Source of the DNA: an uncultured Gammaproteobacteria bacterium
GTDB lineage: Bacteria; Patescibacteriota; Microgenomatia; Levybacterales; GWA1-39-11
Assembly: GCA_964409875.1 (NCBI GenBank)
Contig: CAYPEN010000004.1
Coordinates: 11,596 to 75,595 of the forward strand
DNA: 64,000 nucleotides
Direction: 5' to 3'
Shown: positions 8,465 to 48,031 of the stretch, piece after piece
Layout: every line of letters begins with the position of its first letter
Numbering within the stretch: the stretch's first letter is position 1
Made by a program: the position numbers and the translations under genes
Notes under the pieces: model-generated
Databases searched by the model: none
Told to the model about the DNA's origin: nothing
Seen by the model: only the letters and a program-made list of their open reading frames with translations

Positions 8465-11400
8465 ATGGCAAAACAAACAAAACTACGACAATATTGGGGC
8501 AAACAAGTTGAAAGGTTGCCCGAAATGGATCTTTTGGGGATTCAAAAAGAAAGTTATGATTGGTTCATCCGTGAGGGTATCCGTGAGGTGATTGATGAAA
8601 TTTCTCCTATCGAAGATTTTACTGGAAAAAATTGGGAATTATCGCTTGGCGAATATAGGTTGGGCGAGCCAAAAATCACCGAAGATCTCGCAATGCGAAA
8701 AGGTCTTACCTATTTTTCTCCTCTCACTGTAGAAGCAACACTCCTCAATAAAAAAACCGGAAAGAAAGTATCGCAGGAAGTATTTTTGGGTGAAGTACCA
8801 AAGATGACTGACAGGGCAACCTTCATTGTTAACGGAATTGAGCGTGTTATTGTCAATCAGATCGTACGTTCACCAGGTGTTTTCTTTACTGGCGCTGAAG
8901 ATCCCATAACTGGAAAGACTCTCTATACCGCAGAACTGAGACCTGTTCACGGATCATGGCTTGAGATTTCAACAACAAGAACAGACATGATTGTTGTTAG
9001 AATCGACAGAAGAAAGAAATTCTTGGGAACTGTTTTTCTTAAGGCCCTTGGTATTGAGGCAAATGAGGATATTTATGCAAAATTCAAAGACACTGAGGGT
9101 GCCGAGGAAGTTATCAAGAATACACTCGAGAAAGATGAAGCAAAGGGTTCGACAGACGCACTTATCGAAATCTTCAAGAAATTAAATCCGGGTGAGCCGG
9201 TTGTTATTGATACTATTCGACAGAACTTCAGAGATACATTTTTTGATAGGAGAAGATATGATCTTTCTCGGGTGGGAAGATACAAAATCAATAAAAAATT
9301 AAACGGACTTAATGAAAATGTTTCCCTCGATGTTGCGACCTTAGCGGTTGAGGATATCGTCGGAATCATTAAATATCTTATCGGGTTGTCACAAGGAAAA
9401 GGAAAGGTTGATGACATTGATCATTTGGCAAACAGGCGTGTCAGAAGCGTGGGAGAATTAGTCCAGACAACCGCATTCAGAGTCGGCGCACTTCGTTTGG
9501 AAAGAATCATTAAGGAAAAGATGTCTCTTACCTCAACAGAGGAGATATATTCTCCGTCTCACTTTATCAACGCGCATCCTATTATTGCAGCCATCAATGA
9601 ATTCTTCAGAACATCACAGCTTTCAGCAATCCTCGACCAAACTAATCCGCTCGCAGAAATTGACAATTTAAGAAGACTTACAGTTATGGGAACCGGTGGT
9701 ATTTCTCGGGAAAGAGCATCGTTCTCTATCCGCGATATTAATGCATCTCAATATTCAAAGATTTGTCCTGTCAGAAGCCCTGAAGGACCAAATATTGGTC
9801 TTGTTACTTACCTCGCACTTTATGCAAGAGTTAATGAATTCGGCTTTCTTGAGGCTCCCTATCGGAAAGTAACGCAGGAGAAGAAGGGTGGAAAGACTGT
9901 TTCAAGAGTAACTGACGAAATTGAGTATCTTGATGCTGATGTGGAGTCAGACAAATATATTACCCACGCAGATATTGCCGTTGATGATAAAGGATATATC
10001 GTAGACGAATTGGTTCCGGCGCGTTACAGAGGAGAATATCTTGAGGTAGAAAGAAGCAAAATTGAATACATTGATGTTATTCCGCGTCAAGTAGTTGGTA
10101 CAAGTGCTTCCCTTATTCCTTTTGTAGATCATGACGAAGCGAACAGAGCTCTCATGGGTACTCATATGCAGTGTCAGGCCGTACCATTGGTAAAGACCGA
10201 ATCGCCAGTAGTGGGAACAGGTATGGAAGCAACAGTTGCAGAGGCGATGGGACGGGTTGTTAAAGCACCATTTGATGGAGAGGTTACATTTGTCGATGCA
10301 AATAAGGTAGTTGTTGAAGGTAAAAATGGAAAGATGGAATATGATATTGAAAAATTCAAAAGAACCGCTCAAAACACTTACTTTTCAGAAAAACCCGTCG
10401 TTTTTGCGGGACAGAAAATCAAAAAAGGAGATGTTCTTATCGATGGACCTGCAACTGACAATGGAGAATTGGCGCTCGGAAAGAATTTGCTTATTGCCTA
10501 TGCATCATACGATGGTCTTGGATACGAGGATGCTATTGTTATTTCCGATAGGCTCGTAAAAGACGATGAGCTTACCTCTGTTCATATTGAAAAATACGAA
10601 GCGACTGTTGTTGATACAAAGCTTGGACCTGAGGAAACAACACGGGACATCCCAAATGTTGCAGAGGAAGATTTGGCGAATTTGGATGAAGAAGGTATAG
10701 TTGTTGTCGGTTCTGAAGTTAATCCGGGCGATATTCTTGTAGGAAAGATTGCGCCAAAAGGAGAAACTGAGCTGACAGCAGAAGAAAGACTTTTGAGAGC
10801 AATTTTTGGAGAAAAAGCACGGGAGGTAAGAGACACTTCACTCAGAATGCCTCACGGTGAGCATGGAATTGTAACTTCAGTTCAAGTGCTGGATAGAGAT
10901 AAAGGGGATGAGTTGGAGCCAGGAACTATTAGAAAACTTCTTATCGAGGTCGCGCAGCTTCGGCATGTTGTTGTCGGAGATAAGCTCGCAGGACGGCACG
11001 GCAATAAAGGTGTTATTTCAAAGATTGTTCCCGCTTCAGATATGCCTTATCTTGAAGACGGCACACCGGTTGATATCATCATTTCCCCAATTTCGGTACT
11101 CGGACGTATGAATTTGGGACAGCTTCTTGAAGCTCATGCCGGTTGGGCAGCAAAGCGCTTGGGAGACAAAATCGCAGTGCCCGTTTTTGAGAAAACATCT
11201 GAAGACAGATTGTTCGAACTTCTCAAAGCAGCTGGACTTCCTGCCGATGCTAAAGTAAAATTGTTCGATGCTAGAACCGGAGATGCGTACGAGAATAATG
11301 TAGTCGTTGGAATCGGGTATATCATGAAGCTTATCCACATGGTTGAGGATAAGACTCATGCACGTTCGACAGGACCATACTCTCTTGTCACTCAACAGCC

Positions 11401-11887
11401 TCTTGGTGGAAAAGCTCAAATGGGAGGACAGAGGCTTGGAGAAATGGAGGTATGGGCTCTTGAATCACACAGAGCAGCATATACATTACAGGAGATGTTG
11501 ACCATCAAGTCCGATGACGTTGCCGGAAGAGCTAAAGCATTTGAAGCTATAATTAAAGGAGTTGATATTCCAACTCCAAAGGTGCCAGAATCATTCAAGG
11601 TTCTTATCCGCGAACTTCAGTCTTTGGGTATGAATATCCAGCCGACTCAAGCAGTCATTGCCGATGAGGATGACGAAGATACCACTGATGCGGGGGAGGA
11701 AGTAAAGAAAGAGGCTGAAGAATTGAAAGAGGCACTTGATAGCGAAGATGTTGAGACAAATGAGACAGACGAGGTTTTGACACCGGAAGCAGAATTAACG
11801 GCGACAGCTGAGCTTATTTCTGATTCAGTAGAGCAAACAGAACCGACCGAAGCAGATATTGCCGCTGAAGAAGGAGGAGAAGCCTAA
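8465..11887 (+). CDS. rpoB: DNA-directed RNA polymerase subunit beta
   Basis: Full-length RpoB signatures throughout (rifampicin-region and catalytic motifs; GQRLGEMEVWALE near the C-terminus). Carries an unusual ~85 aa acidic C-terminal tail. Confidence 0.97.
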   Translation: MAKQTKLRQYWGKQVERLPEMDLLGIQKESYDWFIREGIREVIDEISPIEDFTGKNWELSLGEYRLGEPKITEDLAMRKGLTYFSPLTVEATLLNKKTGKKVSQEVFLGEVPKMTDRATFIVNGIERVIVNQIVRSPGVFFTGAEDPITGKTLYTAELRPVHGSWLEISTTRTDMIVVRIDRRKKFLGTVFLKALGIEANEDIYAKFKDTEGAEEVIKNTLEKDEAKGSTDALIEIFKKLNPGEPVVIDTIRQNFRDTFFDRRRYDLSRVGRYKINKKLNGLNENVSLDVATLAVEDIVGIIKYLIGLSQGKGKVDDIDHLANRRVRSVGELVQTTAFRVGALRLERIIKEKMSLTSTEEIYSPSHFINAHPIIAAINEFFRTSQLSAILDQTNPLAEIDNLRRLTVMGTGGISRERASFSIRDINASQYSKICPVRSPEGPNIGLVTYLALYARVNEFGFLEAPYRKVTQEKKGGKTVSRVTDEIEYLDADVESDKYITHADIAVDDKGYIVDELVPARYRGEYLEVERSKIEYIDVIPRQVVGTSASLIPFVDHDEANRALMGTHMQCQAVPLVKTESPVVGTGMEATVAEAMGRVVKAPFDGEVTFVDANKVVVEGKNGKMEYDIEKFKRTAQNTYFSEKPVVFAGQKIKKGDVLIDGPATDNGELALGKNLLIAYASYDGLGYEDAIVISDRLVKDDELTSVHIEKYEATVVDTKLGPEETTRDIPNVAEEDLANLDEEGIVVVGSEVNPGDILVGKIAPKGETELTAEERLLRAIFGEKAREVRDTSLRMPHGEHGIVTSVQVLDRDKGDELEPGTIRKLLIEVAQLRHVVVGDKLAGRHGNKGVISKIVPASDMPYLEDGTPVDIIISPISVLGRMNLGQLLEAHAGWAAKRLGDKIAVPVFEKTSEDRLFELLKAAGLPADAKVKLFDARTGDAYENNVVVGIGYIMKLIHMVEDKTHARSTGPYSLVTQQPLGGKAQMGGQRLGEMEVWALESHRAAYTLQEMLTIKSDDVAGRAKAFEAIIKGVDIPTPKVPESFKVLIRELQSLGMNIQPTQAVIADEDDEDTTDAGEEVKKEAEELKEALDSEDVETNETDEVLTPEAELTATAELISDSVEQTEPTEADIAAEEGGEA

Positions 11888-11900
11888 AGGCAAAGAACAT

Positions 11901-14900
11901 ATGGAACCACAAGATAATAATCAACAATACAGAGACGGAGCGTTTACATCAAAGACAGTTCAACGGAAGAACGATGTTATCAACATCGCTGACTTTGAAG
12001 GACTTCGAATAACCGTAGCATCACCCGATGACATTAAAAATTGGTCATACGGTGAAGTTACAAAGCCTGAAACCATCAACTACAGAACTTTCAGAGCAGA
12101 AAAAGACGGCCTTTTTGATGAGCGGATTTTTGGTCCTACGAGGGATTTTGAGTGTTACTGTGGAAAGTACAAGAGAATAAGATACAAAGGGATTGTTTGT
12201 GACCGATGTGGTGTTGAGGTTACATACTCCAGAGTCAGACGCGAGAGAATGGGGCATATTACTCTTGCCGCACCCGTAATACACGTATGGTTCTCAAAAG
12301 GTTCACCTTCAAAGCTTTCAACGCTTCTTGGTACCTCTCAAAAAGAGCTTGAGTCTATTATTTACTACGCTTCGTACCTCGTTACTACAATTGATGAGGA
12401 GAAAAGAAAAGAGGCTCAAAGCAGGCTTGAAGAAGTAAAACAAGCTCGTCTTTCCGAACTTAAGAAGACGATTGAGGATGAAAAGGCAAGACTTGCAAGT
12501 GAGGAGAAAGAAAAACTTAAGGAAACCGAATCAACACTTAAAAAAGAACGGAAGGAATTAGTTCTAGAGGAACAAAGAGTCAACTACAAACAAAAGAATG
12601 CAGCTCTTGATAAGAGACTTGAAAATGAAGGTGGAAGAATTGAAGAGATATTTGAACGTATCAACGACATTGTAAAAGGATTAAAACCTTGGGATGTCCT
12701 TTCAGAGGAAGAATATGTAAGACTTTTGGAGTATGATGTCATCATATTCTTTGAGGTAGAGACAGGAGCATCCGCTATTCTTCATGCTATTGAAGAGATG
12801 GATATTCCAAAAATCATTGGAGAGCTGCGAGAAGAGGAGCAAAAATCTTCAGGACAAAAACAATTGAAGCTTTTGAAACGCCTCCACCTTATTGAAGCTA
12901 TCAACGAAGCAGGATTTGACCTTTCATCAATGGTCTTAAGAGTTTTGCCTGTCCTTCCGCCGGACTTGCGGCCTATGGTTCAACTTAACGGAGGACGATT
13001 TGCAACTTCCGACTTGAATGACCTGTATCGCAGAGTCATCAATAGAAATAACAGGCTTAACCATCTTATTTCCCTAGGTGCTCCTGAAATCATTTTGAGA
13101 AATGAGAAGAGAATGCTTCAAGAATCTGTTGATTATCTTATCGATACTTCTATTCGTGCTTCATCGACCCAAAGACAATTTAAATCATTGTCAGACGTTT
13201 TGAGAGGAAAGCAGGGCCGGTTCAGAAAGAACCTTCTCGGAAAGCGCGTCGATTATTCCGGACGTTCGGTTATTATTGTGGGTCCAGAGTTATCCCTTAA
13301 CCAATGCGGACTTCCGAAAGAAATGGCTCTTGAACTCTTTAAGCCATTTGTTATCCGTGAAATTATTGCCCGCGGACTTACCACTCCGAATGCAAAAGCT
13401 GCAAAGCGTTATATTGAAAAAAGACCACCTGAGGTTTTTGATATTCTAGAAGAGATTACAAAGAACCATCCGGTGCTTCTCAACCGCGCTCCGACCCTTC
13501 ATAAGCTTGGTATCCAGGCATTCTATCCGGTGCTTGTTGAGGGAAGTGCTATCAAAATCCATCCTTGCGTTTGTGCAGGATACAATGCCGACTTTGACGG
13601 AGATCAGATGGCTATTCATGTACCGCTTTCATCGCGTGCGCAAGAAGAGGCAATAAAGCTTATGATGCCTGCATCCAACCTTTTGAAGCCGGCTGACGGA
13701 AATCCAATCACGCTTCCGAATAAAGAAATGGCATTGGGTATGTTCTACCTTACCTCAATTGATGAGTCGAAGAGACGGGAAAATCTTCCTATATTCTCTG
13801 ACTCAAAAGAAGCATATTTGGCGCTTTCTCTTAAGAAGATTTCACTTCGAGAACCTATCATGATACGTTTTGACGGTAAAGTGCTTGAGACTACTCTCGG
13901 ACGGGTCATGTTCAACGAGGCATTGCCCCAGAAAATGAGATTTGTAAATGAAGAAATTAAAGCTTCAACTATCCGTGAGATCATAACTAAGGCTATGGTT
14001 GATATTTCCGAGGATGAAGTAGCTCATCTTATAGATAAGATTAAAGAAATTGGATTTTATGCTGCAACCCTTTCCGGAATTTCAGTATCAACATTTGATT
14101 TGAAGATGCTTGATAACAAGAAGTCCCTTATCGACGAGGCTGAAAAGCAAATTCAAAATATTGAAAATGAATACCAACAGGGTCTTATCACTCTCTCCGA
14201 GCAGAAGAGGCTCATGAATCACGTTTGGCTTGAGGTTACCGAGAAAATGGCAAACCTCACATGGGATTTATTTGCTAAAAATGACATTGTTCGGATCATC
14301 GCAGATTCAGGAGGAGCTAGGGCTGGAAAAGACCAGATTAAGCAGCTTGCTGCTATGAGAGGTCTTATTTACGACCCACTAGGACGTATTGTCGAGCTTC
14401 CTATCAAATCGAATTTCCGTGAAGGTCTTTCAATTTTTGAGTACGTCAATTCAGCCCGTGGTTCGAGAAAAGGTCTTACTGACTCTGCTCTTAAGACCGC
14501 TGATGCAGGATATTTGACGAGACGTTTGGTGGACGTTACCCACGACGTTATTATCCGTGAAGCAGACTGTGGAACTACAATGGGGTATCATGTGTCTCTT
14601 GAGAGTAAAGAAAATATCACCCCTCTTGTGAATATGCTTCTGGGCCGTGTTGCTCTGAAGGACATTTCCTCAAAGAAAACAAAGAAGGTGTATGTAAAGA
14701 AGGGCGATGACATTGACCACGAAAAACTGAATGAAATCCTTAAAGATGATGGCGTAACTTCAGCAGAAGTAAGAACCCCTATTTACTGCCGTCTCAAATA
14801 CGGTATGTGTGCTGCCTGTTACGGATGGGACCTCTCGTCATACAAGAGAGCGGATCTGGGAACACCAGTTGGAGTTATCGCTGCCCAGTCAATTGGTGAG

Positions 14901-15851
14901 CCTGGAACACAGCTTACGATGCGGGTTAAGCATTTTGGAGGAGTCGTTATGTCAGACGTGACGCAAGGGTTGCCTCGTGTTGAAGAGCTTTTTGAAGTAA
15001 GAAGACCTAAGAATTTGGCACCGGTTGCAGAAATTACCGGAAAGGCAAGTGTTGAGAAAGTAGAAGACGGATATATCGTTAAGATTAAAAATACCAAAGT
15101 AAAACCTGTTGAGGAGAGAGAATACTTTGTTCCTCTTGCATCGAGCCTTCTTATCGAAGACGGTGAGCAGGTTGTAGCAGGAACTCAGCTTTGTGAAGGA
15201 CATCTAGATCCCAAAGATGTTTTGAAAGTTGGAGGACTCGAGCGCGCTCAACAATATCTTATCAACCAAATACAGTATGTGTATGAGTCGCAAGGTATTT
15301 CAATTCACTACAAGCACTTTGAAACAATAGTCCGCAAGATGTCTGATAAGGTTATGATTGAGACAGCAGGAGACACGTCCCTTCTACCTGGTGACCTTAT
15401 TTCAAAGCTTCGTTTTGAAGAAGAAAATGCTTCAGTCATTTCTGAAGGTGGAGAGCCGGCAACCGCACGGGAGACTATGCTTGGTGTCACCAAAGCGGCA
15501 CTTGTTACCGACTCGTGGCTTTCTGCAGCATCATTCCAAGAGACTACCCAGGTTTTGACCGATGCTTCTCTTGAAGGGAGAGTCGATGACCTCATCGGAC
15601 TTAAGGAAAATGTTATTGTCGGACGTCTTATTCCTGTCCGTGAGCATTTGATGGATAATTATGTTGATCCTGAAATCCAACCCATCAATGCTCCATCAAG
15701 CATTGAGCATATCTCAAAAGAAGATTTGGAAGCAGGAGAAAAAGCATTGGCAGCGCAAGCAACTGAAGAAGTAGATGCGGAAGTAGCAGAAGAAAAAGAG
15801 CCTGAAGAAGAAACCTCTGCCCCCGATGAGGCTGGAAATGAAGCTGAATAA
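11901..15851 (+). CDS. rpoC: DNA-directed RNA polymerase subunit beta-prime
   Basis: RpoC zinc finger CYCGKYKR...CDRCG and catalytic NADFDGD. I chose the ATG at 11901 with AGGAGG upstream; the ORF track starts at an in-frame TTG at 11859, which would overlap rpoB by 29 nt. Confidence 0.93.
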
Positions 15852-15871
15852 AGTGTATAATCTCTAGACCT

Positions 15872-16297
15872 ATGCCAACACTCAATCAACTCGTTAAAAA
15901 AGGACGAGCAAAAAAAGGAAAAAAGATCAAAGCAACCGGTCTTCGCACTATTTTTAATGCAAAAAATAGGGCGTACACTGAGAATCCTTCCCCTCAAAAA
16001 AGAGGAGTAGTAACGTTGGTGCGTACCATGACTCCTAAGAAACCTAATTCAGCTCTTCGAAAAGTTGCAAGGGTAAAGCTTTCAAACCGGGAAGAGGTCA
16101 CTGCATATATTCAGGGTATTGGGCACAATTTAGCTGAGCATGGTATTGTTTTGGTCCGTGGAGGGAGAGTCAAGGATTTACCGGGTGTGAAATACCACTT
16201 AATAAGAGGAAAGTTTGATTTGGCAGGAGTTCAAAATAGAAAAACATCACGCAGTAAATATGGAGCAAAGAAAGGAGGCGGCGCACAAGCGCAATAG
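15872..16297 (+). CDS. rpsL: 30S ribosomal protein S12
   Basis: [12 protein letters not shown]... typical S12 sequence. Confidence 0.95.
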
Positions 16298-16357
16298 TTA
16301 ATAGTCAATAGATAATAATAAATTAGCTATTAGTTATCAGCTATCAGCCATTAAATT

Positions 16358-16837
16358 ATGCCAAGAGGACATAGAGTCGTTGAAAAAAGAAAATTGAATC
16401 CTGACCCAATTTATGGGAGTGTTTTGCTTTCAAAATTCATCAACAACGTAATGGAAGACGGCAAAAAGACGGTCGCACAACAAAACGTTTACAAAGCACT
16501 TGATATCCTAAAAGAAAAAGGTCTTGAGCCGTTAGCGACCTTCGAAAAGGCGTTAGACACCATTGCTCCAAAGCAGGAAGTACGCCCGAAAAGAGTCGGA
16601 GGCGCTGCTTATCAGGTTCCACAGGAAGTACGGGGAACCCGCAAAGTTTCACTTGCCATCCGTTGGCTTTTGGAAGCAACGAGAAAAAAACCAAATACAG
16701 AGTTTAAAACCTTCTCAGAAAAACTTGCTGCAGAAATCCAGGCAGCACTCAACAACGAGGGTGAGGCTATCAGAAAGCGCGACACCGTCCACAAAATGGC
16801 AGATGCTAACAAAGCATTTGCCCACTTCAGATTCTAA
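16358..16837 (+). CDS. rpsG: 30S ribosomal protein S7
   Basis: MPRGHRVVEKRKLNPDPIY... typical S7 sequence. Confidence 0.95.
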   Translation: MPRGHRVVEKRKLNPDPIYGSVLLSKFINNVMEDGKKTVAQQNVYKALDILKEKGLEPLATFEKALDTIAPKQEVRPKRVGGAAYQVPQEVRGTRKVSLAIRWLLEATRKKPNTEFKTFSEKLAAEIQAALNNEGEAIRKRDTVHKMADANKAFAHFRF

Positions 16838-30687: not shown

Positions 30688-31143
30688 TCACATCGCATTC
30701 ACCCTCTTTCGAGCATCAGTTAGTTCTAATGTTTCAATTTCCCTAATGGCTTTTTTTGAGATGGTATTGAGTGGAACTTTTAATTCCGTTACAAAATTTC
30801 CTAAAACTTTTTTTGAAAGAGGATACGGGATGTATTTCTTTATGATTGCAAACAAATTTTTATGGCCCCCGATAAGTATTCCGTCGACTGGATTTTCCTT
30901 AACGTATTTTTTTACAATAGCTGAAAGAGAATTGAGATGTTGGTGAAGATGTTCTTGTATATGCCGGTTGATTTTATCTTGTGCATCCCAGGCGTTACTC
31001 CCATGTTTTACTCTTTGAGGAACATCATTTTTCGAGAAGTCTAAAAGAGAGGAGACAGTCCCTTTAAAAAGAGTGAACAATTTTGCTTGTTTTCTATCTG
31101 CAATAAGCACTAAATATGTTTTGCTTGAATTGTAATTTTTCAT
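30688..31143 (-). CDS. Host_attach / bacterial eRF1-like (baeRF) family protein, tentative
   Basis: 151 aa beginning YLVLIADRKQAKLF, typical of Host_attach/eRF1-domain-3-like proteins. Recalled from memory; low certainty. Confidence 0.4.
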   Translation of the reverse strand: MKNYNSSKTYLVLIADRKQAKLFTLFKGTVSSLLDFSKNDVPQRVKHGSNAWDAQDKINRHIQEHLHQHLNSLSAIVKKYVKENPVDGILIGGHKNLFAIIKKYIPYPLSKKVLGNFVTELKVPLNTISKKAIREIETLELTDARKRVNAM

Positions 31144-34277: not shown

Positions 34278-35297
34278 TTGGTCACAAGAATCGGCATCAA
34301 CGGCGCCGGCCGCATCGGCCGGATGGTCACAAAGACGGTCACTGACCGTTACCAGGGTCAACTTCAGGTCGTTGCTCTCAACGATCCGTTCTCCGAGCCT
34401 CGTGTCACGGCCAACATGCTCAGGTACGACAGTACCTACGGCCGTTGGAGTCACGAGGTCGAGGAGGGCAACGATCACATCAAGGTTGACGGCCGTTACA
34501 TCCCTCACTTCAGTGAGCGCGAGCCCGGTTCGATTCCTTGGGAGGCGGCACAGGTCGACATCGTCGTCGAATCGACGGGCGTCTTCACTGACGCCGCCCG
34601 TGCCCGCGCACACATGCGAGGGCCGGTCAAAAAGGTCATCATCAGTGCACCCGCCAAGAGCGAGGACTACACAGTGGTTCTCGGCGTCAACGACGATGGG
34701 TATGATTCCGCTCGTCACGATGTGGTGAGTAACGCATCCTGCACGACCAATGGGCTCGCCCCGGTCGTGAAGGTGCTCGTCGACAACCTCGGGCTCGTAA
34801 AGGGCCAGATGACGACAATCCATTCCTACACCAATTCCCAGCAGATCCTCGACAAGGCTGTAGGGAATGACCTTCGCGAGATGCGCGCCGGTCCCCTCAA
34901 CATCGTGCCGACATCAACCGGCGCAGCCAGGGCCCTCCGGCTCGTCATCCCCGAAGTCGATGGAAAGCTTGACGGGCTTTCGTACCGCGTCCCGACGCCG
35001 ACGGTCTCAATCGTCGAGATCGTTGCGCTGACCGAAAGGGACACAACGAAAGACGAGCTCAACGGACTGTTTCGGGAGGCTTCCATAGGGAAGATGAAGG
35101 GTGTCTTGGGTATCACCATGGACCCCGTCGTCTCGATGGACATGAAGGGCGATGAGCGCTCAAGTGTCGTCGACGGGATGTCGACCAACGTTGTCGGGGG
35201 TAACCTCGTCAAGGTCGCAGCCTGGTACGACAACGAGTGGGCATACGCATGTCGCATCAGCGACCTCTGCAAATTCATCGCCGACAAGGGGCTCTAG
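34278..35297 (+). CDS. gap: glyceraldehyde-3-phosphate dehydrogenase, type I (GC-rich, likely horizontally acquired)
   Basis: RIGINGAGRIGR NAD-binding motif; catalytic SNASCTTN. TTG start with AAAGAGGA upstream. GC content and codon usage (GCC, GTC, GAC, CGC) differ sharply from the flanks. Confidence 0.92.
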   Translation: MVTRIGINGAGRIGRMVTKTVTDRYQGQLQVVALNDPFSEPRVTANMLRYDSTYGRWSHEVEEGNDHIKVDGRYIPHFSEREPGSIPWEAAQVDIVVESTGVFTDAARARAHMRGPVKKVIISAPAKSEDYTVVLGVNDDGYDSARHDVVSNASCTTNGLAPVVKVLVDNLGLVKGQMTTIHSYTNSQQILDKAVGNDLREMRAGPLNIVPTSTGAARALRLVIPEVDGKLDGLSYRVPTPTVSIVEIVALTERDTTKDELNGLFREASIGKMKGVLGITMDPVVSMDMKGDERSSVVDGMSTNVVGGNLVKVAAWYDNEWAYACRISDLCKFIADKGL

Positions 35298-35352: not shown

Positions 35353-35441
35353 TTATACTACTTTCTTTTTTTACCTCAATTTGGTATACTTTCAAAGACC
35401 CTTAAATCGGGTCGTTTTTTTGACTAAAAAAAGTACATATT

Positions 35442-37571
35442 ATGGCTGGAGCAGCCCCAACAACTACAGTTACAAAAGATAGAAACGTAGCGCTTGATAA
35501 AATCCGAAATTTCGGAATTATCGCGCATATCGATGCAGGCAAAACCACAACTTCCGAGCGTATTCTTTATTACACGGGAAGGACCTACAAAATTGGTGAA
35601 GTACACGAAGGTGCCGCAACGATGGACTGGATGGATCAGGAAAGAGAGCGGGGTATTACTATTGTTTCTGCTGCAACCACAACATTTTGGAATGGATACC
35701 GTTTTAACCTTATTGATACCCCCGGTCATGTTGATTTTACTGCAGAAGTAGAGCGTTCTCTCCGTGTTTTAGACGGCGCCGTTACCGTTTTAGACGCAGA
35801 GGAGGGAGTTCAAAGCCAATCCGAAACCGTTTGGCGTCAAGCCGACAAATACAATGTTCCCAGAATCTGCTTTATTAACAAAATGGATAAATTGGGGGCA
35901 GACTATGAAAAGACAATACAATCAGTTATTGATAGGTTGGGTGCGAATCCTGTAACAATCGGTCTTCCTATTGGAGCAGAAAATGATTTTAAGGGTATTT
36001 ATCATGTGCTTGACCAAAAGTCCTATATTTGGTCTGGAGAAGAGTTGGGCGCAAAATTTGAGGTAACGGAAGAGATTCCGGATGGCATGAATGAAATGGT
36101 CAAAAAATACCGCGAGCAACTCATCGAAAAGATTGCAGAGACTGATGATGCACTTTTGGAAAAATACCTGAATGGTGATGAGATTTCTTATGATGAATTA
36201 AAAGCTGCATTGAGAGCTGCAACTATTGCCTACAAGGTTGTTCCGGTATTCGCTGGGACGAGCCTGAGAAATAAAGGTGTCCAACCGTTATTGGATGCAG
36301 TGGTTGATTTCCTTCCATCTCCTGCCGACCTTAAAACGGTTACAGGAACCAATCCCAAGACCGGACAAGAGGAGACGAGAAATTTGACACCTGATGAATC
36401 CTTTACCGGTTTTGCTTTCAAGGTTCAAGTTGATCCTCATGTTGGAAAAATTACGTATGTACGCATCTACTCAGGAAAATTAACTTCAGGCTCATATGCT
36501 TATAACTCAACAAAGGATCTTAAGGAGCGTGTGGGAAGGCTTCTTCTTATGCATGCCAATCAAAGAGAGGAAATAAAAGAGGCATATGCAGGTGAAATCG
36601 TTGCAATTGTCGGATTCAAAGACACAATTACTGGTGATACTCTTTGTGAGGAGGGAAAGCCAATTGTTTTGCAACAGATTACTTTCAGAGACCCTGTTAT
36701 TTCACTTGCCATTGAGCCGAAAACCAAGTCTGACCAAGAGAAATTAGGCGCAGCGATGAAGCGTCTTATGGAAGAGGACCCGACATTTACGGTCAAGATG
36801 AACCACGAAACGGGTCAAACCATCATGTCAGGGGTGGGAGAATTGCAGCTTGAGATTATGGTAGAGCGTATGAAGCGGGAAATGGGAGTTGAGGCAAATG
36901 TTGGTGCACCACAGGTTGCATATAAAGAAACAATTGTTGGAAAAGCTAACGCCGAATTTAAGTACATCAAGCAGACTGGAGGCCGCGGACAATACGGTCA
37001 CGTTTTGATAACCGTTGAGCCGAAAGGAAGAGGTGAGGGATTTGAATTTGTGAATGCTATTAAGGGAGGAGCAATTCCACAAGAATTTATCCCAGCAGTT
37101 GAAAAAGGAATTGTTGAGGCTATGGAGCGAGGAGTTGCCTTTGGATACCCTGTTGTTGATGTAAAAGTGACATTGTACGACGGAACCTATCATGACGTCG
37201 ACTCTTCAGAAATTGCCTTTAAAATTGCCGGTTCACAAGCCTTCCAAAAGGGAGCTCGGGAAGCAAAAGTTACCCTTCTCGAGCCTATTATGAAGGTTGA
37301 GGTAACCACTCCTGAAGAATTTATGGGAGATGTTATCGGTGATCTTTCAGCAAAAAGGGCACAGATTTCAGGAAGCGAGGAAAGAGGCAATTCAAGAATT
37401 ATTTTGGCTCTTGTTCCCCTTGCTGAGCTTTCCGGATACGCTACAACACTTCGTTCTCTGACTCAGGGAAGAGCAAACCCATACATGGAGCCATCCCACT
37501 ACGAGGAAGTGCCTACCCAGATTCAAGAACAAATCAAAGCGAAATCCAACTTCGTTCCCAAAGAAGAGTAG
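35442..37571 (+). CDS. fusA: elongation factor G
   Basis: G domain [21 protein letters not shown], and all five EF-G domains. Confidence 0.95.
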
Positions 37572-37614: not shown

Positions 37615-38802
37615 ATGGCACGAAAAAAGATATCTGAATTTGCGGCCAAGAAACTCCTGTACGAATTTTTAGAAGTCCCCTACAATGGTGTTTCTATAGA
37701 CACAAATGATGAATATTATGAAGATCTCCTTTCACAAATGGATGATGGAAAAAAATATGTCCTTAAAGTAGACCAGGGAATAAAGCAGCGGAAGAAGAGA
37801 GGACTGGTTACGTTCAATATTTCAAAAGAGAATATTAAAGAAGAAATCGTGAGGCTTGCCGAGAAAGGCTTCTCAAGTTTTATATTGGAAGAATTTGTTG
37901 AGCATGAAGGATTTGGCGAAAATTATCTGGCAATTGAACGGGTGCGAGAAGGGAAGAGGGTGTACTATTCGACCGTAGGAGGAATAGACATTGAAGAGCA
38001 TAAGGACAAGATAGAGACGGCAATCATTAGCGATTACAGTCAGTTTGAAGATATTTCAAAGACTCTGGGGATAACTGTTGAAACTTTTGAAAGCTTATTG
38101 CAAGCATTTGATAATTACTATTTTTCATTTCTTGAAATAAATCCTTTAGTTTCCATGAACGGGAAATTCTACTTTCTTGATACTGCAGTTGAGGTAGATA
38201 GCACCGCAGAATTTTTTGTAAATGGAGCGTGGAGCAAAAGTGATTTTCGAGAAGGGGGAAGGGCGCAAAAAACACCAGAAGAGGTGGCAATAGAAGAGTT
38301 AAAAGAAACTACTCCTGCGGCATTAAGTTTTCAACTACTCAATCCTGATGGTTCTTTGTTTGTATTATTATCAGGCGGCGGGGCATCACTGGTGACTGCT
38401 GATGAGATTTATCAAAAAGGAAAAGGAAATGAATTAGCAAATTATGGTGAGTATAGCGGAAGTCCGTCCGAGGAAGAAACCTATTTATATGTGCAGCAAA
38501 TTTTACGTACGTTGCTCCGTTCGAAAGCTCCAAAAAAGGCAATAATTGTTTCGGGTGGCGTTGCTAATTTTACCGATGTCAGAATTACCTTTAAAGGAAT
38601 AATAAGAGCGATGGAAGAAGTAAGCGATGATTTAAAACAACAAAACACTAAAGTATTTGTTCGGCGTGGAGGTCCCCATCAGGATGAAGGACTTTCAATG
38701 ATGAGAGAATTTCTTGAAAAGCATGATCTACTGGGAGAAATTCACGGTCCGGAATTAGTGTTAACGGATATTGTACAACCGGCGATTGAATGGATTAGTT
38801 GA
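37615..38802 (+). CDS. aclB: ATP-citrate lyase small subunit (ATP-grasp, succinyl-CoA synthetase beta-like)
   Basis: Strong ACLY/AclB-specific motifs: KKISEFAAKKLLYEF, FLEINPLV, NELANYGEYSGSPSEEETY, TFKGIIRAM, VFVRRGGPHQDEGL. Confidence 0.85.
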   Translation: MARKKISEFAAKKLLYEFLEVPYNGVSIDTNDEYYEDLLSQMDDGKKYVLKVDQGIKQRKKRGLVTFNISKENIKEEIVRLAEKGFSSFILEEFVEHEGFGENYLAIERVREGKRVYYSTVGGIDIEEHKDKIETAIISDYSQFEDISKTLGITVETFESLLQAFDNYYFSFLEINPLVSMNGKFYFLDTAVEVDSTAEFFVNGAWSKSDFREGGRAQKTPEEVAIEELKETTPAALSFQLLNPDGSLFVLLSGGGASLVTADEIYQKGKGNELANYGEYSGSPSEEETYLYVQQILRTLLRSKAPKKAIIVSGGVANFTDVRITFKGIIRAMEEVSDDLKQQNTKVFVRRGGPHQDEGLSMMREFLEKHDLLGEIHGPELVLTDIVQPAIEWIS

Positions 38803-38840
38803 AGTGTGAAGTATGATTTAGGATTTAGGATTTAGGATAT

Positions 38841-40625
38841 ATGAATATAAAAGAATTACGAGAATTAACATCAAAAATTATTATCATCGGATCGCATCCG
38901 GGAATTATTCAGTCAATTTTGGATTACGATTTTTTAGTAGGGCACACTACTCCATCTATTATTGGGATTGTTGCGAATGGAAGAAGATATGAACGTTTCT
39001 TTTTTGGAAAACATGAAACACTAATTCGTGTATATCCTACTCTCTCCTCTATCCCCAAAGAAATGAGAGAAAAAGTGAACATGCTTCTGAATGTCTCGTC
39101 AGGGAGGAGAACTTTCACCTCCACTGTTGAGGCAATAGATGCATTTCCAAATTTAAAACTCGGAACTCTTTTTGCAGAAGGTGTTCCTGAAAAACATGCA
39201 ATTGACCTTTTCGAATATGCAAAAGACAAAAACGTAACCCTTATCGGTCCGGCAAGTGTAGGGATAGTAGTTCCTGGAGCTTTTAAGCTGGGAGCAGTTG
39301 GAGGAATTTCGCAAAAACAAATAACTTCATCAGGCATTTGGTCAAATGGCGGTGTGTGTGTGCTCTCTGCTTCGGGGGGAATGGTGAACGAAATCATAAA
39401 TGTTGTGAATGGTACCCACAACAAAACCTCTTTTGCTCTTTCTTTTGGTGGAGATAGATTTCCTCTTCTAGAACCGGTTGATGCATTGATGGCAGCTCAA
39501 GTAGATGAGGCAACACAAGCAATTGTTTATTATGGTGAATTAGGGGGAGAAGATGAGTATAAATTGGCAAAACTCATAGAAATAGGACACATCACAAAGC
39601 CGGTTATTTGCTATGTTGCAGGAACAATTTCCGATCTTTTTGAAACTCCTCCGCAATTTGGGCATGCAAAAGCGATGGCAAAAAATATGGAAGAGTCAGC
39701 AAGTGCGAAGCGGGAGACTCTCAAAAAGGCGGGTGCAAAAGTTCCAGAAAGTTTTTCTGAATTTGTTGATATGATACGAAACCTTCCTGACTTTGGAACA
39801 GAAGAGGCAAGTGGTACAATTGAGTATATGGAAGATAGACGACACGCGCTCATTTCATCAAGCATTTCAAAAGATGTAGATGGGGACGTAAAAATATTGG
39901 GTGAGGATTTGACTACCTTTGCAAAAGATAATTCATTTGCAAAAATTGCTGCATCATTGTTTCTTGGGAAAAAATTACAAAATTCTGAAACCGAAGAGCT
40001 TGTCGATTTTATATTAAAAGTTAGCGTTGATCACGGACCCTATGTCTCGGGTGCACTTAACACTATTGTCTCTGCACGAGCAGGAAAGGACTTGGTCTCA
40101 TCATTGTCAGCCGGACTTTTGACGATAGGTCCTCGTTTTGGTGGTGCTCTGAACGAGGCAGCAAGGAATTGGTTTTCAGGGGTTGTTGATAACAAGACAG
40201 CCTTTCAATTCGTCGAAGAATTTGCAGCTCGGAAAGAATACATACAAGGTATTGGTCATAAAAAATACCGTATTGATATGCCTGACCCTAGGGTTTCTGA
40301 ACTTAAGAAGTTCATGGATAAATTGGAAAAGAAGAGGTTTATACATTTTGCTCTTAATGTCGAAAAAATAACAACGGATAAAAAAGGAAATCTGATACTC
40401 AACGTTGACGGTACAATAGCCGCCCTACTCCTCGACTTTCTTTCCGAAAAGGAGGGGTATACTGACGAACAATTATTTGAGTTAATCCAGCAAGAATTTT
40501 TCAATGCACTTTTTGTTCTCTCAAGAAGTGTTGGTTTTATCGCTCATTTCCTTGACCAAAAAAGACTCGACGAGGGATTATTGCGGTTAACTGAAGACGA
40601 TGTAGCAGATGCAAGTTTACAATAG
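38841..40625 (+). CDS. aclA: ATP-citrate lyase large subunit (CoA-binding + phosphohistidine loop + citrate-synthase-like domain)
   Basis: CoA-binding N-terminus; PPQFGHAKAMA matches the ACLY catalytic His loop (QFGHAGA); C-terminal GHKKYRIDMPDPR is citrate-synthase-like. Follows aclB after a 38 nt spacer. Confidence 0.85.
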   Translation: MNIKELRELTSKIIIIGSHPGIIQSILDYDFLVGHTTPSIIGIVANGRRYERFFFGKHETLIRVYPTLSSIPKEMREKVNMLLNVSSGRRTFTSTVEAIDAFPNLKLGTLFAEGVPEKHAIDLFEYAKDKNVTLIGPASVGIVVPGAFKLGAVGGISQKQITSSGIWSNGGVCVLSASGGMVNEIINVVNGTHNKTSFALSFGGDRFPLLEPVDALMAAQVDEATQAIVYYGELGGEDEYKLAKLIEIGHITKPVICYVAGTISDLFETPPQFGHAKAMAKNMEESASAKRETLKKAGAKVPESFSEFVDMIRNLPDFGTEEASGTIEYMEDRRHALISSSISKDVDGDVKILGEDLTTFAKDNSFAKIAASLFLGKKLQNSETEELVDFILKVSVDHGPYVSGALNTIVSARAGKDLVSSLSAGLLTIGPRFGGALNEAARNWFSGVVDNKTAFQFVEEFAARKEYIQGIGHKKYRIDMPDPRVSELKKFMDKLEKKRFIHFALNVEKITTDKKGNLILNVDGTIAALLLDFLSEKEGYTDEQLFELIQQEFFNALFVLSRSVGFIAHFLDQKRLDEGLLRLTEDDVADASLQ

Positions 40626-41574
40626 CGTTCTCCTCTCAACTATTCTCTGGTATCAAATTGGCGGTATCGCCAAAACCGTTATTGATGTTTCCTCAAAAGA
40701 AGATGTTTATGAGGCCCTGAATTACATAAAATCCCACAATGAGACGAAGGTTTTTATTCTTGGGATGGGTTCTAATTTGCTTTTCTCTGATGAGGGATAT
40801 GATGGGGTAATAATCCGCTTTTTGTCTCAAGAAGACGGAATGGGCGTGAAATTACTTGAAAATGGTGTAGTTGAAAGTTTTGCCGGGGAATTTTTAGATA
40901 GTGTTATTCAAACCGGATTTGAACATGATCTTACGGGACTTGAATGGGCAGGGGGACTTCCAGGGACGGTTGGAGCAGCCGTCAGGGGAAATGTTGGTGC
41001 GTTTGGAGGAGAGATAAAAGACAGTTTTGTGAAAGCACATTGTATCCGCTTGCAAGAAAACGGGGATTATGAAGAAGTCACAATAAGTCATGCGGAGATG
41101 GATTTTGCATATCGTTCAAGCAAGGTAAAAACGGAGAAATTAATTGTTGTATCCGCTCAGTTTCAATTAAAACAGGCAACTCCGGAGGAACTACTCGCAG
41201 CCCGCGAAACGTACTACGCAAACATCCGCTACAGGCAGGACAATCATCCACTCGATTATCCAAATTGCGGAAGCGTATTCAAAAATATCTCCAAAGGGGA
41301 AGAAGTTGAAAGGATTCTCGAGTCATGGGGAGATATTAAAGATTTGGTATATGGAAAATGGCATGGAAAAGTGAGTATGGGGTACGTTATTGATAGACTT
41401 GGATTTAAAGGTCAAAGAAACGGAGCAGCACAAGTGAGTGAAAAACATCAGAATTTTATAGTGAATCTTGGGGGAGCAAAAGCCAATGACGTGAAGGGTC
41501 TTATCTCCGAAATTGAGGAAGAAATGCAGGAATCATTTGGTTTCACCCCGGAGGTCGAAATTGAAATAGTATAA
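40609..41574 (+). CDS. murB: UDP-N-acetylenolpyruvoylglucosamine reductase
   Basis: FAD-binding ILGMGSNLL region and NCGSVFKN motif. Overlaps the aclA end by 17 nt. Confidence 0.85.
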   Translation: MQVYNSVLLSTILWYQIGGIAKTVIDVSSKEDVYEALNYIKSHNETKVFILGMGSNLLFSDEGYDGVIIRFLSQEDGMGVKLLENGVVESFAGEFLDSVIQTGFEHDLTGLEWAGGLPGTVGAAVRGNVGAFGGEIKDSFVKAHCIRLQENGDYEEVTISHAEMDFAYRSSKVKTEKLIVVSAQFQLKQATPEELLAARETYYANIRYRQDNHPLDYPNCGSVFKNISKGEEVERILESWGDIKDLVYGKWHGKVSMGYVIDRLGFKGQRNGAAQVSEKHQNFIVNLGGAKANDVKGLISEIEEEMQESFGFTPEVEIEIV

Positions 41575-45891: not shown

Positions 45892-46938
45892 TTAGGAGTA
45901 CTTTTTCAATAAATTCACTAAGGCATCTTCGCTCCATGAAAGTCCCTTTATTTGAGGTTTTTTGTTTTTGTGCGCTTCGAAGTGGGGAACAAGCACTTTT
46001 TTTGAATATGTTTTGATAACCGTTGGATGGATATAGTAGTTCCTACAGACTGCAACGGTATTATTAAGATGTACTGCAACCTTTTTTACCGTATCAACGA
46101 CATTTTTCTTTATTTCGCTCGCATTCTCGGCTTGCCCCTTTTTATAAAATATCTCAGAAGAAAGAGTGGTTGCTCCCCACGTCCTAAAATCCTTGGCGGT
46201 AAAATCATTTTGCGTTACATCTTGTAAAAAATCATTGACATCCTGAGAATCAATTACGTGCCTTTCCCCCTCGTCATCGATATACTGAAATAATTCATAG
46301 CCAGGCAACTCAATGCACTTTTTTATGGTTTTAACAACTGTTGGGTTTGTCACTTCAATAACATTTTCAACTCCGTGTTTTCCTCTAAAACGGAAAACAA
46401 TCTCTCCCGTTTTTACCAATGCATGCTTGTTGCGAAGCGTTGTGAGACCATATGAATCGTTTTCTTTTTGATACTCTTCATTTCCAATCCGGACAAACGT
46501 ATGTTCTAAAAGCCAGACAATTGTTGCAAGAATTTTTTGCTTTGACATATCCTTTGAGTGCATGTCATATGCTATTTTTGAACGTATTTTCGGTAGACTT
46601 AGTCCAAAATCGACCATTTTTGAGAACTTATTTTCCTGACTTATTTTCTTCCAGTCTTCGTGATATATATATTGTTTTCTTCCTTTCTCATCGATACCGG
46701 TTGCCTGTAAATGGCCATTTTGAAAGGGCGCAATCCAAACATTCTTCCAAGCCGGTGGAATAACAAGCTTCTTAATTCGTTCAAGAGTTTTTTCATCTTT
46801 TATTTTATTTCCTTCCGTGTCGTAATAAGAAAAAGAACCCCTGTTCTTTTGTCTAAAGTACCCCGGAGCTGCATCTGAGATATAACGGAGCGATTCCTTT
46901 TTAAGCCCTTCAATTAAATTGGGGGTGAGATTATCCAT
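45892..46938 (-). CDS. DNA topoisomerase IB (bacterial/poxvirus type)
   Basis: Characteristic N-terminal fragment GSFSYYDTEGNKIKDEKTLERIKKLVIPPAW and the catalytic Tyr region near the C-terminus (CRNYYIHP). Confidence 0.85.
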   Translation of the reverse strand: MDNLTPNLIEGLKKESLRYISDAAPGYFRQKNRGSFSYYDTEGNKIKDEKTLERIKKLVIPPAWKNVWIAPFQNGHLQATGIDEKGRKQYIYHEDWKKISQENKFSKMVDFGLSLPKIRSKIAYDMHSKDMSKQKILATIVWLLEHTFVRIGNEEYQKENDSYGLTTLRNKHALVKTGEIVFRFRGKHGVENVIEVTNPTVVKTIKKCIELPGYELFQYIDDEGERHVIDSQDVNDFLQDVTQNDFTAKDFRTWGATTLSSEIFYKKGQAENASEIKKNVVDTVKKVAVHLNNTVAVCRNYYIHPTVIKTYSKKVLVPHFEAHKNKKPQIKGLSWSEDALVNLLKKYS

Positions 46939-46984: not shown

Positions 46985-48031
46985 TTAGAGAACTATGAGA
47001 TTACACGTTATCATTGGAATATGAAAATGGATTGAAAATATCGTAAAGCTGGTTGTTTTGGTTGCACACACTGTTCGGAATTTCGGGATAGTAATGAATG
47101 GAAAGGTGCCGGTTGGAGTGGGTGTAGTTGAGAGTGTCGGTGTAGGTGATTGAGAAATTGTAGGGGTTAGGGTGGGCGTGTCAGTTGGCGTTGTAGACGG
47201 GGTGGTTGTTGGGGTAGAAGTTGGAGTAATGCTTTCCGTAGGCGGTATTGATTCAGTCGGAGTTGCTGTAGGTGTTGGAGTGGTCGTATCGGTTGGTGTT
47301 GTCGTGGGTGTTTGGGATGGTGTTGAAGTAATTGTAACTGAAGGCGTTTCTGTGACAGTGGGAGTAATTGTTGTGGTGCTCGTTGGAGTCTGTGTGGGTA
47401 CCGGTTCTAAAGAAGAGGAACTATTTTGGGGCTGTGGAATACTTCTAAGCACAAAGTCATTGGTATTATTATCTGTATCTTCTCCATTCCCCTGAAATTC
47501 ATCTATTCCTCCTATTGCCATAGTTTGCGTGGTGGATGCGGAAGTAGCTTTTCTTTCAATACTTTCTGAAATAGTAGGATTTGGAGCATCAGAAAGTTCT
47601 TTTACGGTTGCACTTCCGATCCCAACTCTATCAATAACTGTGATTTTATTATCACTATAAAGAGTGATAGTTGAGTCGGTAGAAAAACCGGTAGAATAGG
47701 TAATATCTGCGATAGGTGCGGCAGAACTGGCGCTATTCGCAATTAAATAAAAACCGTGAGCAGGAATTGTACCGATTAATCCTGCAGCAATAAAATTAGT
47801 TTCTGAGGTCCCGTCTGTTGTTGTCTTTGTAATGTGCCATTGTGAAAGGTTAATGTTTGAATTTGTTGGATTGTAAAGTTCTATAAATTCGTCAGACCCA
47901 TTGTTTTTGATTTCAGAAATAACTATGTGATTTGCAGTTGATGCATGAGCTATAGGGATAGAGATTGCAAAAATAACTATTAGAAATAGAAAAAATGAAG
48001 ATATTAGAACCGTGGGCAGTTTGGAGAACAT
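46985..48031 (-). CDS. secreted lamin-tail-domain (LTD) protein with long Thr/Pro repeat region
   Basis: Signal/TM. LTD signature HIVISEI...DEFIELYNP. About 100 aa of TPT/TPS repeats. Confidence 0.7.
   Translation of the reverse strand: MFSKLPTVLISSFFLFLIVIFAISIPIAHASTANHIVISEIKNNGSDEFIELYNPTNSNINLSQWHITKTTTDGTSETNFIAAGLIGTIPAHGFYLIANSASSAAPIADITYSTGFSTDSTITLYSDNKITVIDRVGIGSATVKELSDAPNPTISESIERKATSASTTQTMAIGGIDEFQGNGEDTDNNTNDFVLRSIPQPQNSSSSLEPVPTQTPTSTTTITPTVTETPSVTITSTPSQTPTTTPTDTTTPTPTATPTESIPPTESITPTSTPTTTPSTTPTDTPTLTPTISQSPTPTLSTTPTPTGTFPFITIPKFRTVCATKTTSFTIFSIHFHIPMITCNLIVL

Follow-up and report, generated by a model that had tools for sequence, protein, structure and literature searches.

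A predicted two-gene ATP-citrate lyase of the eukaryote/archaeal type in Candidatus Levybacteria

Introduction

Bacteria of the Candidate Phyla Radiation (CPR; Patescibacteria) account for much of bacterial diversity, and how their reduced cells obtain central metabolites is poorly understood. One enzyme of interest here is ATP-citrate lyase (ACL), the classical marker enzyme of the reductive tricarboxylic acid (rTCA) cycle. We describe aclB and aclA, two adjacent genes in a 64,000-nucleotide stretch of DNA (assembly GCA_964409875.1, contig CAYPEN010000004.1, positions 11,596 to 75,595; hereafter the window), which are predicted to encode a complete ACL in a member of Candidatus Levybacteria.

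The human and Methanosaeta concilii ACLY structures were reportedly described by Verschueren et al. in 2019. Both enzymes (PDB 6hxh, 6uuz, 6hxi) contain the same four modules as the Levybacteria pair and align with it end to end. M. concilii ACLY shares the two-gene layout, and human ACLY shares residues E599, H760, H900, H975, D1026, N346, T348, and R379. The human ATP-grasp domain is ~25-30 residues longer than that of Levybacteria aclB, the eukaryotic fusion linker is absent from the pair, and both reference enzymes have GHAGA and N645 where Levybacteria aclA has GHAKA and Gln. The AclBA of Chlorobium limicola and other Chlorobiaceae (PDB 6hxj) has the same two-subunit architecture (398 + ~610 amino acids [aa] versus 395 + 594 aa here) and serves autotrophic CO2 fixation, for which the Levybacteria locus offers no support. 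In Hydrogenobacter, homologous domains perform the same overall chemistry split over two enzymes, citryl-CoA synthetase (CCS; CcsAB) and citryl-CoA lyase (CCL; Ccl) (PDB 6hxq, 6hxp); Ccl is a separate protein, whereas the Levybacteria lyase is fused to the alpha subunit.

Within the CPR, the Gracilibacterium 'Detritibacteria gulfii' was found in 2019 to carry a two-subunit ACL, likewise encoded by two genes and of archaeal-like affinity, which was termed 'rarely detected in CPR' (Sieber et al. 2019, PMC6851277). Its loop is the canonical GHAGA, whereas the Levybacteria clade has GHAKA and a fusA…aclBA-murB context, and its genome contains putative citrate transporters. Saccharimonadia metagenome-assembled genomes (MAGs) were described as 'enriched in aclAB' in 2025 (PMC12577380), and Patescibacteria were listed in 2026 among ACL carriers able to take up citrate (PMC13014828). 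Given these earlier reports of ACL in CPR, the initial annotation of this DNA, which called the enzyme unexpected in such bacteria, overrated the surprise. Our literature search found no paper pairing 'ATP citrate lyase' with 'Levybacteria'. What is new here is modest: vertically inherited ACL across Levybacteria, its setting between fusA and murB, and a clade-wide Gly-to-Lys change.

Annotation and domain architecture

Proteins were compared with all PDB chains using phmmer and with Pfam and NCBIfam profiles at curated cutoffs. Residues were mapped by converting HMMER alignments to native human ACLY numbering. The predicted ACL features are as follows.

37615..38802, forward strand: aclB, ACL small (beta) subunit, 395 aa (open reading frame [ORF]; Pfam PF24948, PF16114)
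37618-38232, forward strand: aclB ATP-grasp domain, aa 2-206 (Pfam)
38269-38790, forward strand: aclB citrate-binding domain, aa 219-392 (Pfam)
38803..38840, forward strand: aclB-aclA spacer, 38 nt (read from the sequence)
38841..40625, forward strand: aclA, ACL large (alpha) subunit, 594 aa (Pfam Ligase_CoA, Citrate_synt)
aa 1-315 of aclA, forward strand: CoA-binding/CoA-ligase half (Pfam Ligase_CoA)
39660..39674, forward strand: aclA phosphohistidine loop G274-H275-A276-K277-A278 (GHAKA; motif position and alignment to human ACLY)
39843-40607, forward strand: aclA citrate-synthase-homology (citryl-CoA lyase) module, ~aa 335-589

Both ORFs have exactly the lengths and coordinates first given for them, and each motif quoted in the initial annotation has a defined position: LLYEF at aa 14, FLEINPLV at aa 172, NELANYGEYSGSPSE at aa 272, and VFVRRGGP at aa 347 of the 395-aa protein, and QFGHAKA at aa 272 of the 594-aa protein. 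The aclB product matches Citrate_synth_N (PF24948) at 115.5 bits (cutoff, 83) and Citrate_bind (PF16114) at 183.6 bits (cutoff, 26.8). In aclA, Ligase_CoA is followed by a C-terminal Citrate_synt match (PF00285, aa 363-582), in agreement with the citrate-synthase-like domain originally assigned to that end of the protein.

Within the spacer, at 38812-38835 and immediately 5' of the aclA ATG, lie three AGGAT(T/A)T heptamers in tandem (GATTTAGGATTTAGGATTTAGGATAT). The last of them provides a Shine-Dalgarno-like AGGA 7 nt 5' of the ATG, and the heptamers may be repeated Shine-Dalgarno-like sites.

Assignment as ATP-citrate lyase

The best PDB matches of both proteins were ACLY. For aclB, the match to human ACLY residues 2-418 had an E value of 3e-64 (220 bits), followed by M. 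concilii ACLY-A (6e-59), C. limicola AclB (2.5e-35), and the Hydrogenobacter citryl-CoA synthetase large subunit (5e-15, 58.9 bits). The aclA product aligned end to end with human ACLY residues 497-1092 (7e-110, 371 bits) and then with M. concilii ACLY-B (3e-102) and C. limicola AclA (5e-66). Its best matches to succinyl-CoA synthetase (SCS) alpha, the citryl-CoA synthetase small subunit, citryl-CoA lyase, and citrate synthase had E values of 3e-24, 1e-17 (67.1 bits), 1.6e-14 (56.7 bits), and 3e-14, respectively. NCBIfam models for SucC/SucD, citryl-CoA lyase, and citrate synthase all scored far under their cutoffs (for SCS, 59 bits against a cutoff of 376 for TIGR01016 and 116 bits against 336 for NF004230). 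Because NCBIfam scores fall this far short, NCBI labels the orthologues 'citrate/2-methylcitrate synthase'.

Every mapped catalytic or binding residue is conserved, both in the query and in CPR orthologues, and the mapped numbering falls on the expected residue types. By alignment, aclA residues E113, H275, and H398 correspond to human E599, H760, and H900, and H473, D523, R562, and R582 correspond to H975, D1026, R1065, and R1085. The assignment of these human residues as catalytic, with H760 as the phosphohistidine, is one that we take as given; on that alignment, H275 of aclA is predicted to be the catalytic phosphohistidine. In aclB, the equivalents of human K58, R66, G309, N346/F347/T348, and R379 are kept in the query and seven CPR orthologues, as are the LEINPLV and LD.A.EVD nucleotide-binding motifs. 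The NYGEYSG, GGVANFT, and VFVRRGGP motifs of the citrate-binding domain are all kept.

On the basis of this score ranking and of the mapped conserved residues, aclB and aclA are predicted to form a complete heteromeric ACL (EC 2.3.3.8) of the eukaryote/archaeal type, and neither an SCS nor a split CCS/CCL system. Identities as SCS, citrate synthase, or CCS/CCL were rejected on the score ranking, the curated cutoffs, and the fused lyase architecture; in the CcsAB-plus-Ccl arrangement the lyase is a separate protein, and here it is a module of the alpha subunit. The original call of ACL over a generic SCS is thus upheld by ACL-specific Pfam domains and ACLY best matches: the findings named in advance as refuting it, best matches to SCS or citrate synthase and missing citrate-binding or catalytic His residues, did not appear. 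The citryl-CoA synthetase/lyase variant that it offered as an alternative is excluded by the ranking and the fusion. Its comparison with the AclB/AclA of rTCA autotrophs holds for subunit size, but the sequences are closer to eukaryote/archaeal ACL.

Phylogeny and the phosphohistidine loop

AclA homologues were sought among 1.84 billion representatives at 50% identity, and a bootstrapped neighbor-joining tree was built from 50 full-length AclA-type sequences. (P and L numbers below are our labels for homologous sequences and related loci.) The query falls in a clade with P0152 and P0154-P0159 that has 100% bootstrap support and includes Dojkabacterium among its named members. The nearest representatives outside the clade share only ~37-41% AclA identity with the query, and Chlorobiaceae AclA (P0225; ~33% identity) is a distant outgroup. 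The broad group containing the CPR clade also holds fused forms of ~1000-1160 aa and a DPANN archaeal sequence (P0164). In published trees, eukaryotic ACLA/B grouped with DPANN archaea (PMC11976288). The deep nodes linking the CPR clade to other ACL lineages have weak support (42-56%), and we therefore claim no sister group for it.

The clade is marked by a Lys beside the predicted phosphohistidine. FGHAKA was present in 120/120 of the closest homologues and GHAGA in 33/35 outgroup ACLs; among the representatives, Lys at this position is confined to the clade with 100% bootstrap support, one member of which (P0154) has reverted to Gly. Compared with the 35 other ACLs, only two columns are strictly clade specific, K277 (human G762) and Q160 (human N645). 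Other CPR ACLs, namely a Saccharibacteria sequence (P0179/P0317) and the published Gracilibacterium enzyme (PMC6851277), have GHAGA. The initial annotation quoted the QFGHAKA loop correctly but did not flag its departure from the canonical form. A literature search returned no paper on the substitution, and the clade-wide replacement of GHAGA by GHAKA appears to be new.

Host and inheritance

The named relatives of the window's RpoB (8465-11887), at 77-91% identity, are solely Levybacteria, Levyibacteriota, or Patescibacteria, and the window is therefore assigned to a Levybacterium. This bears out the first reading of the DNA as that of a small-genome bacterium. A scan of genome contigs with one protein as query gave seven close relatives, and taxonomic breadth was therefore taken from source names. 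By these names, AclA homologues at 57-85% identity belong to Candidatus Levybacteria, 'Saccharimonadales', and Patescibacteria.

Composition, synteny, and divergence agree with the original description of the genes as AT rich and native, with no sign of a recent contaminant-like insert. GC content at third codon positions (GC3) is 0.32 for aclB and 0.30 for aclA, versus 0.37 for fusA, 0.36 for murB, and 0.34 for rpoB. On contigs carrying both genes, AclA identity falls with RpoB identity (RpoB/AclA, 88/72, 87/76, 82/71, and 77/59%), which indicates vertical inheritance. Against the closest relative, ratios of nonsynonymous to synonymous substitution rates (dN/dS) are 0.036 for aclB and 0.061 for aclA, values comparable with the 0.020 of murB, with dS saturated; dS was saturated for every relative except the closest. 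A contaminant or recent insert was rejected on the native GC3, synteny on independent contigs, and this codivergence. Thus, aclB and aclA are ancient native genes on which purifying selection acts strongly. Levybacteria carry ACL widely, by vertical inheritance, and the GHAKA clade is also found in Dojkabacteria and other Patescibacteria.

A neighboring gene stands out by composition. The type I glyceraldehyde-3-phosphate dehydrogenase (GAPDH) gene at 34278-35297 (forward strand) has 59.6% GC and a GC3 of 0.76 in a window of 40% GC, forming a sharp GC island that extends ~45 nt downstream of the gene. It has a TTG start and its own terminator-like hairpin on the 3' side (35397-35413). Among named sequences, Chloroflexota (Dehalococcoidia, Tepidiforma) come closest, at 73-78% identity, and one unnamed match reaches 88%; none of the related Levybacteria loci has the gene at this position. 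It appears to have been acquired horizontally, very recently, and possibly from a host or neighbor. Its visibility as a GC island shows that the composition test discriminates in this genome.

Six NCBI third-party annotation (TPA) MAG records (L002, L004-L008) titled 'uncultured Gammaproteobacteria bacterium' carry Levybacteria-type aclB/aclA. L005-L008 reach fusA, and their elongation factor G (EF-G) is ~93% identical to that of the window; murB or a murB fragment is present in five of the six. In view of the Levybacteria-type locus, the EF-G identity, and murB, these titles look like mislabels. A 2.7-kb 'Luteimonas sp.' contig (P0064) encoding an AclA with 79% identity is probably misbinned.

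Genome context

The pair is flanked by two genes on the same strand.

35442..37571, forward strand: fusA (EF-G), 709 aa, upstream neighbor (ORF and Pfam EF-G domains)
40609..41574, forward strand: murB (UDP-N-acetylenolpyruvoylglucosamine reductase), 321 aa (Pfam FAD_binding_4, MurB_C)

As first described, aclB directly follows fusA, with a gap of 43 nt after the fusA end at 37571; the murB start overlaps the 3' end of aclA by 17 nt. A terminator-like hairpin lies 5' of fusA (the one at 35397-35413), and none occurs between fusA, aclB, aclA, and murB. The short or overlapping spacers and the placement of the hairpin suggest that the four genes are cotranscribed, probably with fusA as the first gene of the unit. 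Promoter and terminator scans gave counts no higher than in shuffled sequence, and operon structure is for that reason put forward as a suggestion.

The gene order recurs in related loci. Upstream, fusA lies 5' of aclB in L005, L006, L008, and L012 to L015; murB is immediately 3' of aclA in L002-L006, L012, L013, and L015. The order fusA…aclB-aclA-murB recurs in L002-L006, L008, L012, L013, and L015, down to 59% AclA identity. In L013 and L015 (59-61% AclA identity) the locus follows rpsL-rpsG, and in L013 it is followed by tuf-rpsJ. The conserved linkage of aclBA to murB appears to be new. Synthesis of UDP-N-acetylglucosamine (UDP-GlcNAc) needs acetyl-CoA, and the linkage, as an association only, hints at a tie to cell-wall precursor synthesis.

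The surrounding str/S10 arrangement (rpoBC-rpsL-rpsG-fusA-tuf-rpsJ) is broken up in this lineage, with parts here at 8465-16837, at 35442-37571, and just past 64000. Approximately 18 kb of unrelated genes separates rpsG from fusA, and aclBA-murB plus ~23 kb separates fusA from tuf-rpsJ; the overall order is retained in distant Levybacteria (L013, L015). Two relatives show local anomalies that look like rearrangement scars. In L007 (10001-12055), the aclA ORF reaches 684 aa by reading through into a 76-residue murB fragment, and fusA is inverted downstream. In L005 (8441-8563), a 41-residue duplicate of the fusA 3' end lies just 5' of aclB.

Proposed role

We consider it probable that the pair is a functional eukaryote/archaeal-type ACL that cleaves citrate from a host or the surrounding community to acetyl-CoA and oxaloacetate. 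The steps below apply solved ACLY/AclAB structures to the residues conserved here. ATP bound in the AclB ATP-grasp domain would phosphorylate His275 of AclA, and the phosphoryl group would pass to citrate in the AclB citrate-binding domain (NYGEYSG, ANFT, and VRRGGP motifs). CoA would then displace phosphate to give citryl-CoA, which the C-terminal citrate-synthase-homology module of AclA (His398, His473, Asp523) would split into acetyl-CoA and oxaloacetate. Imported citrate could in this way supply two building blocks to a lineage that reportedly has neither a TCA cycle nor any other means of making them. Acetyl-CoA could serve acetylations, including the UDP-GlcNAc/peptidoglycan branch to which the murB linkage points, or acetate-linked ATP formation; oxaloacetate could lead to aspartate, malate, or phosphoenolpyruvate (PEP).

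Published work is consistent with such a role. Cleavage is the thermodynamically favored direction, the ATP-forming reverse having a dGm' of +9 kJ/mol (PMC8085960). A Microgenomates pangenome core, from an analysis focused on Pacebacteria-related MAGs, is reported to be without a TCA cycle or acetyl-CoA or oxaloacetate routes (PMC6064768). Citrate scavenging has been proposed for the Gracilibacterium ACL (PMC6851277) and for Patescibacteria MAGs from deep groundwater (PMC13014828). The initial annotation had already suggested acetyl-CoA from partner-derived citrate; that is the reading preferred here, as a deduced role and one already published for other CPR bacteria.

Several points weigh against this reading. 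The window, ~9 kb of sequence upstream, and flanks of ±10 kb at eight related loci yielded no citrate transporter and no consumer of acetyl-CoA or oxaloacetate. Searches of the same regions likewise returned no pyruvate:ferredoxin oxidoreductase (PFOR), Pta/AckA/Acd, malate dehydrogenase, malic enzyme, PEP carboxykinase, aconitase, isocitrate dehydrogenase, or GlmU. The link to murB is evidence by association only and may reflect nothing more than history. To our knowledge, a Gly-to-Lys change beside the catalytic His has no precedent in characterized ACL or SCS enzymes, and the kinetics or the direction of the reaction could be altered by it.

Alternative explanations

It is unlikely that the enzyme acts chiefly as an ATP-forming citrate synthase, running backward from acetyl-CoA + oxaloacetate + ADP + Pi to citrate + CoA + ATP. 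In that direction a CPR cell would gain one more step of substrate-level phosphorylation, as Desulfobacter postgatei is reported to do, and CPR bacteria rely on such phosphorylation (PMC6851277). The reaction is near equilibrium, an ATP-gaining reverse was reported by Moller et al. (1987, as cited in PMC8085960), and, speculatively, the clade's Lys beside the phosphohistidine could shift the phosphoryl-transfer equilibrium. Against this, overcoming the +9 kJ/mol requires high acetyl-CoA and oxaloacetate and low citrate (PMC8085960), the Microgenomates core reportedly offers no pathway to acetyl-CoA or to oxaloacetate (PMC6064768), and no inspected locus contains aconitase, isocitrate dehydrogenase, or a citrate exporter.

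The loop change also admits two related proposals. One, which we rate as quite unlikely, is that the GHAKA clade of Levybacteria and Dojkabacteria is a functionally distinct ACL in which G762K and N645Q retune phosphoryl transfer, either for an efficient ATP-forming direction or for altered substrate or nucleotide specificity. If this is true, ultra-small CPR cells would possess a previously unrecognized step for conserving energy or for scavenging, and the conserved aclBA-murB unit would couple that step genetically to the synthesis of cell-wall precursors. The other, more doubtful still, is that the clade is an ACL-derived enzyme acting on another tricarboxylate, a dicarboxylate, or a different nucleotide and does not cleave citrate. 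That G762K and N645Q are the only strict signature columns, the former in a loop otherwise almost invariant among the outgroup sequences, speaks for altered specificity. Retention of the citrate-binding residues G309, N346, F347, T348, and R379 and of the lyase triad H900, H975, and D1026 speaks against it, as does P0154, whose Gly shows that the Lys is not indispensable.

We give very little credence to the genes as a mark of the rTCA cycle, and hence of autotrophic CO2 fixation, in the host. The subunit sizes match those of Chlorobium AclB/AclA, but Chlorobiaceae AclA is the distant outgroup noted above, and the host is a Levybacterium with a genome of roughly 1 Mb. Neither ~75 kb of this genome nor the flanks of the eight related loci contain 2-oxoglutarate:ferredoxin oxidoreductase, PFOR, fumarate reductase, aconitase, or isocitrate dehydrogenase, and surveys list Patescibacteria as ACL carriers without the remaining cycle (PMC13014828).

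A misread SCS, CCS plus CCL, or citrate synthase, or a contaminant misassembled into a CPR contig, is refuted: although database names (the NCBI one above and, at JGI, sometimes 'succinyl-CoA synthetase alpha subunit') and one preprint placing some CPR sequences with CCS/CCL would favor it, those families score 40-90 orders of magnitude weaker than ACLY and far below NCBIfam cutoffs, the lyase forms part of the alpha subunit, as it does in ACL, composition is native, and the same gene order reappears on contigs that are independent and come from several samples, together with Levybacteria rpoC, rpsL, rpsG, fusA, tuf, and rpsJ.

Other features of the window

The following features lie outside the ACL locus.

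932-2791, forward strand: alanyl-tRNA synthetase, 619 aa (tRNA-synt_2c and tRNA_SAD)
2811-5063, forward strand: 750-aa ORF without a Pfam match, after the alanyl-tRNA synthetase gene
30688-31143, reverse strand: baeRF_family10 protein, release-factor related (Pfam)
45892-46938, reverse strand: bacterial type IB topoisomerase (Pfam Top1B_N_bact and Topoisom_I)
46985-48031, reverse strand: lamin-tail-domain (LTD) protein, beside the topoisomerase gene (Pfam)

At 619 aa, the alanyl-tRNA synthetase is short for a bacterial enzyme. The topoisomerase IB and LTD protein pair is conserved in relatives. Rfam and tRNA scans found no tRNA, rRNA, or other Rfam-recognized RNA genes in the window.

Significance

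Two practical consequences concern surveys: aclAB cannot be relied on to mark rTCA autotrophy in metagenomes, and the NCBI name 'citrate/2-methylcitrate synthase' hides these ACLs from view. As a natural variant, the invariant Lys that replaces Gly next to the catalytic His could be informative for the enzymology of ACL and SCS. For the organisms themselves, the Levybacteria ACL provides a testable cross-feeding hypothesis and makes citrate a candidate cultivation supplement. One imported molecule would yield both acetyl-CoA and oxaloacetate, and the conserved, vertically inherited ACL suggests that citrate from a host or neighbor is a standard carbon currency of Levybacteria.

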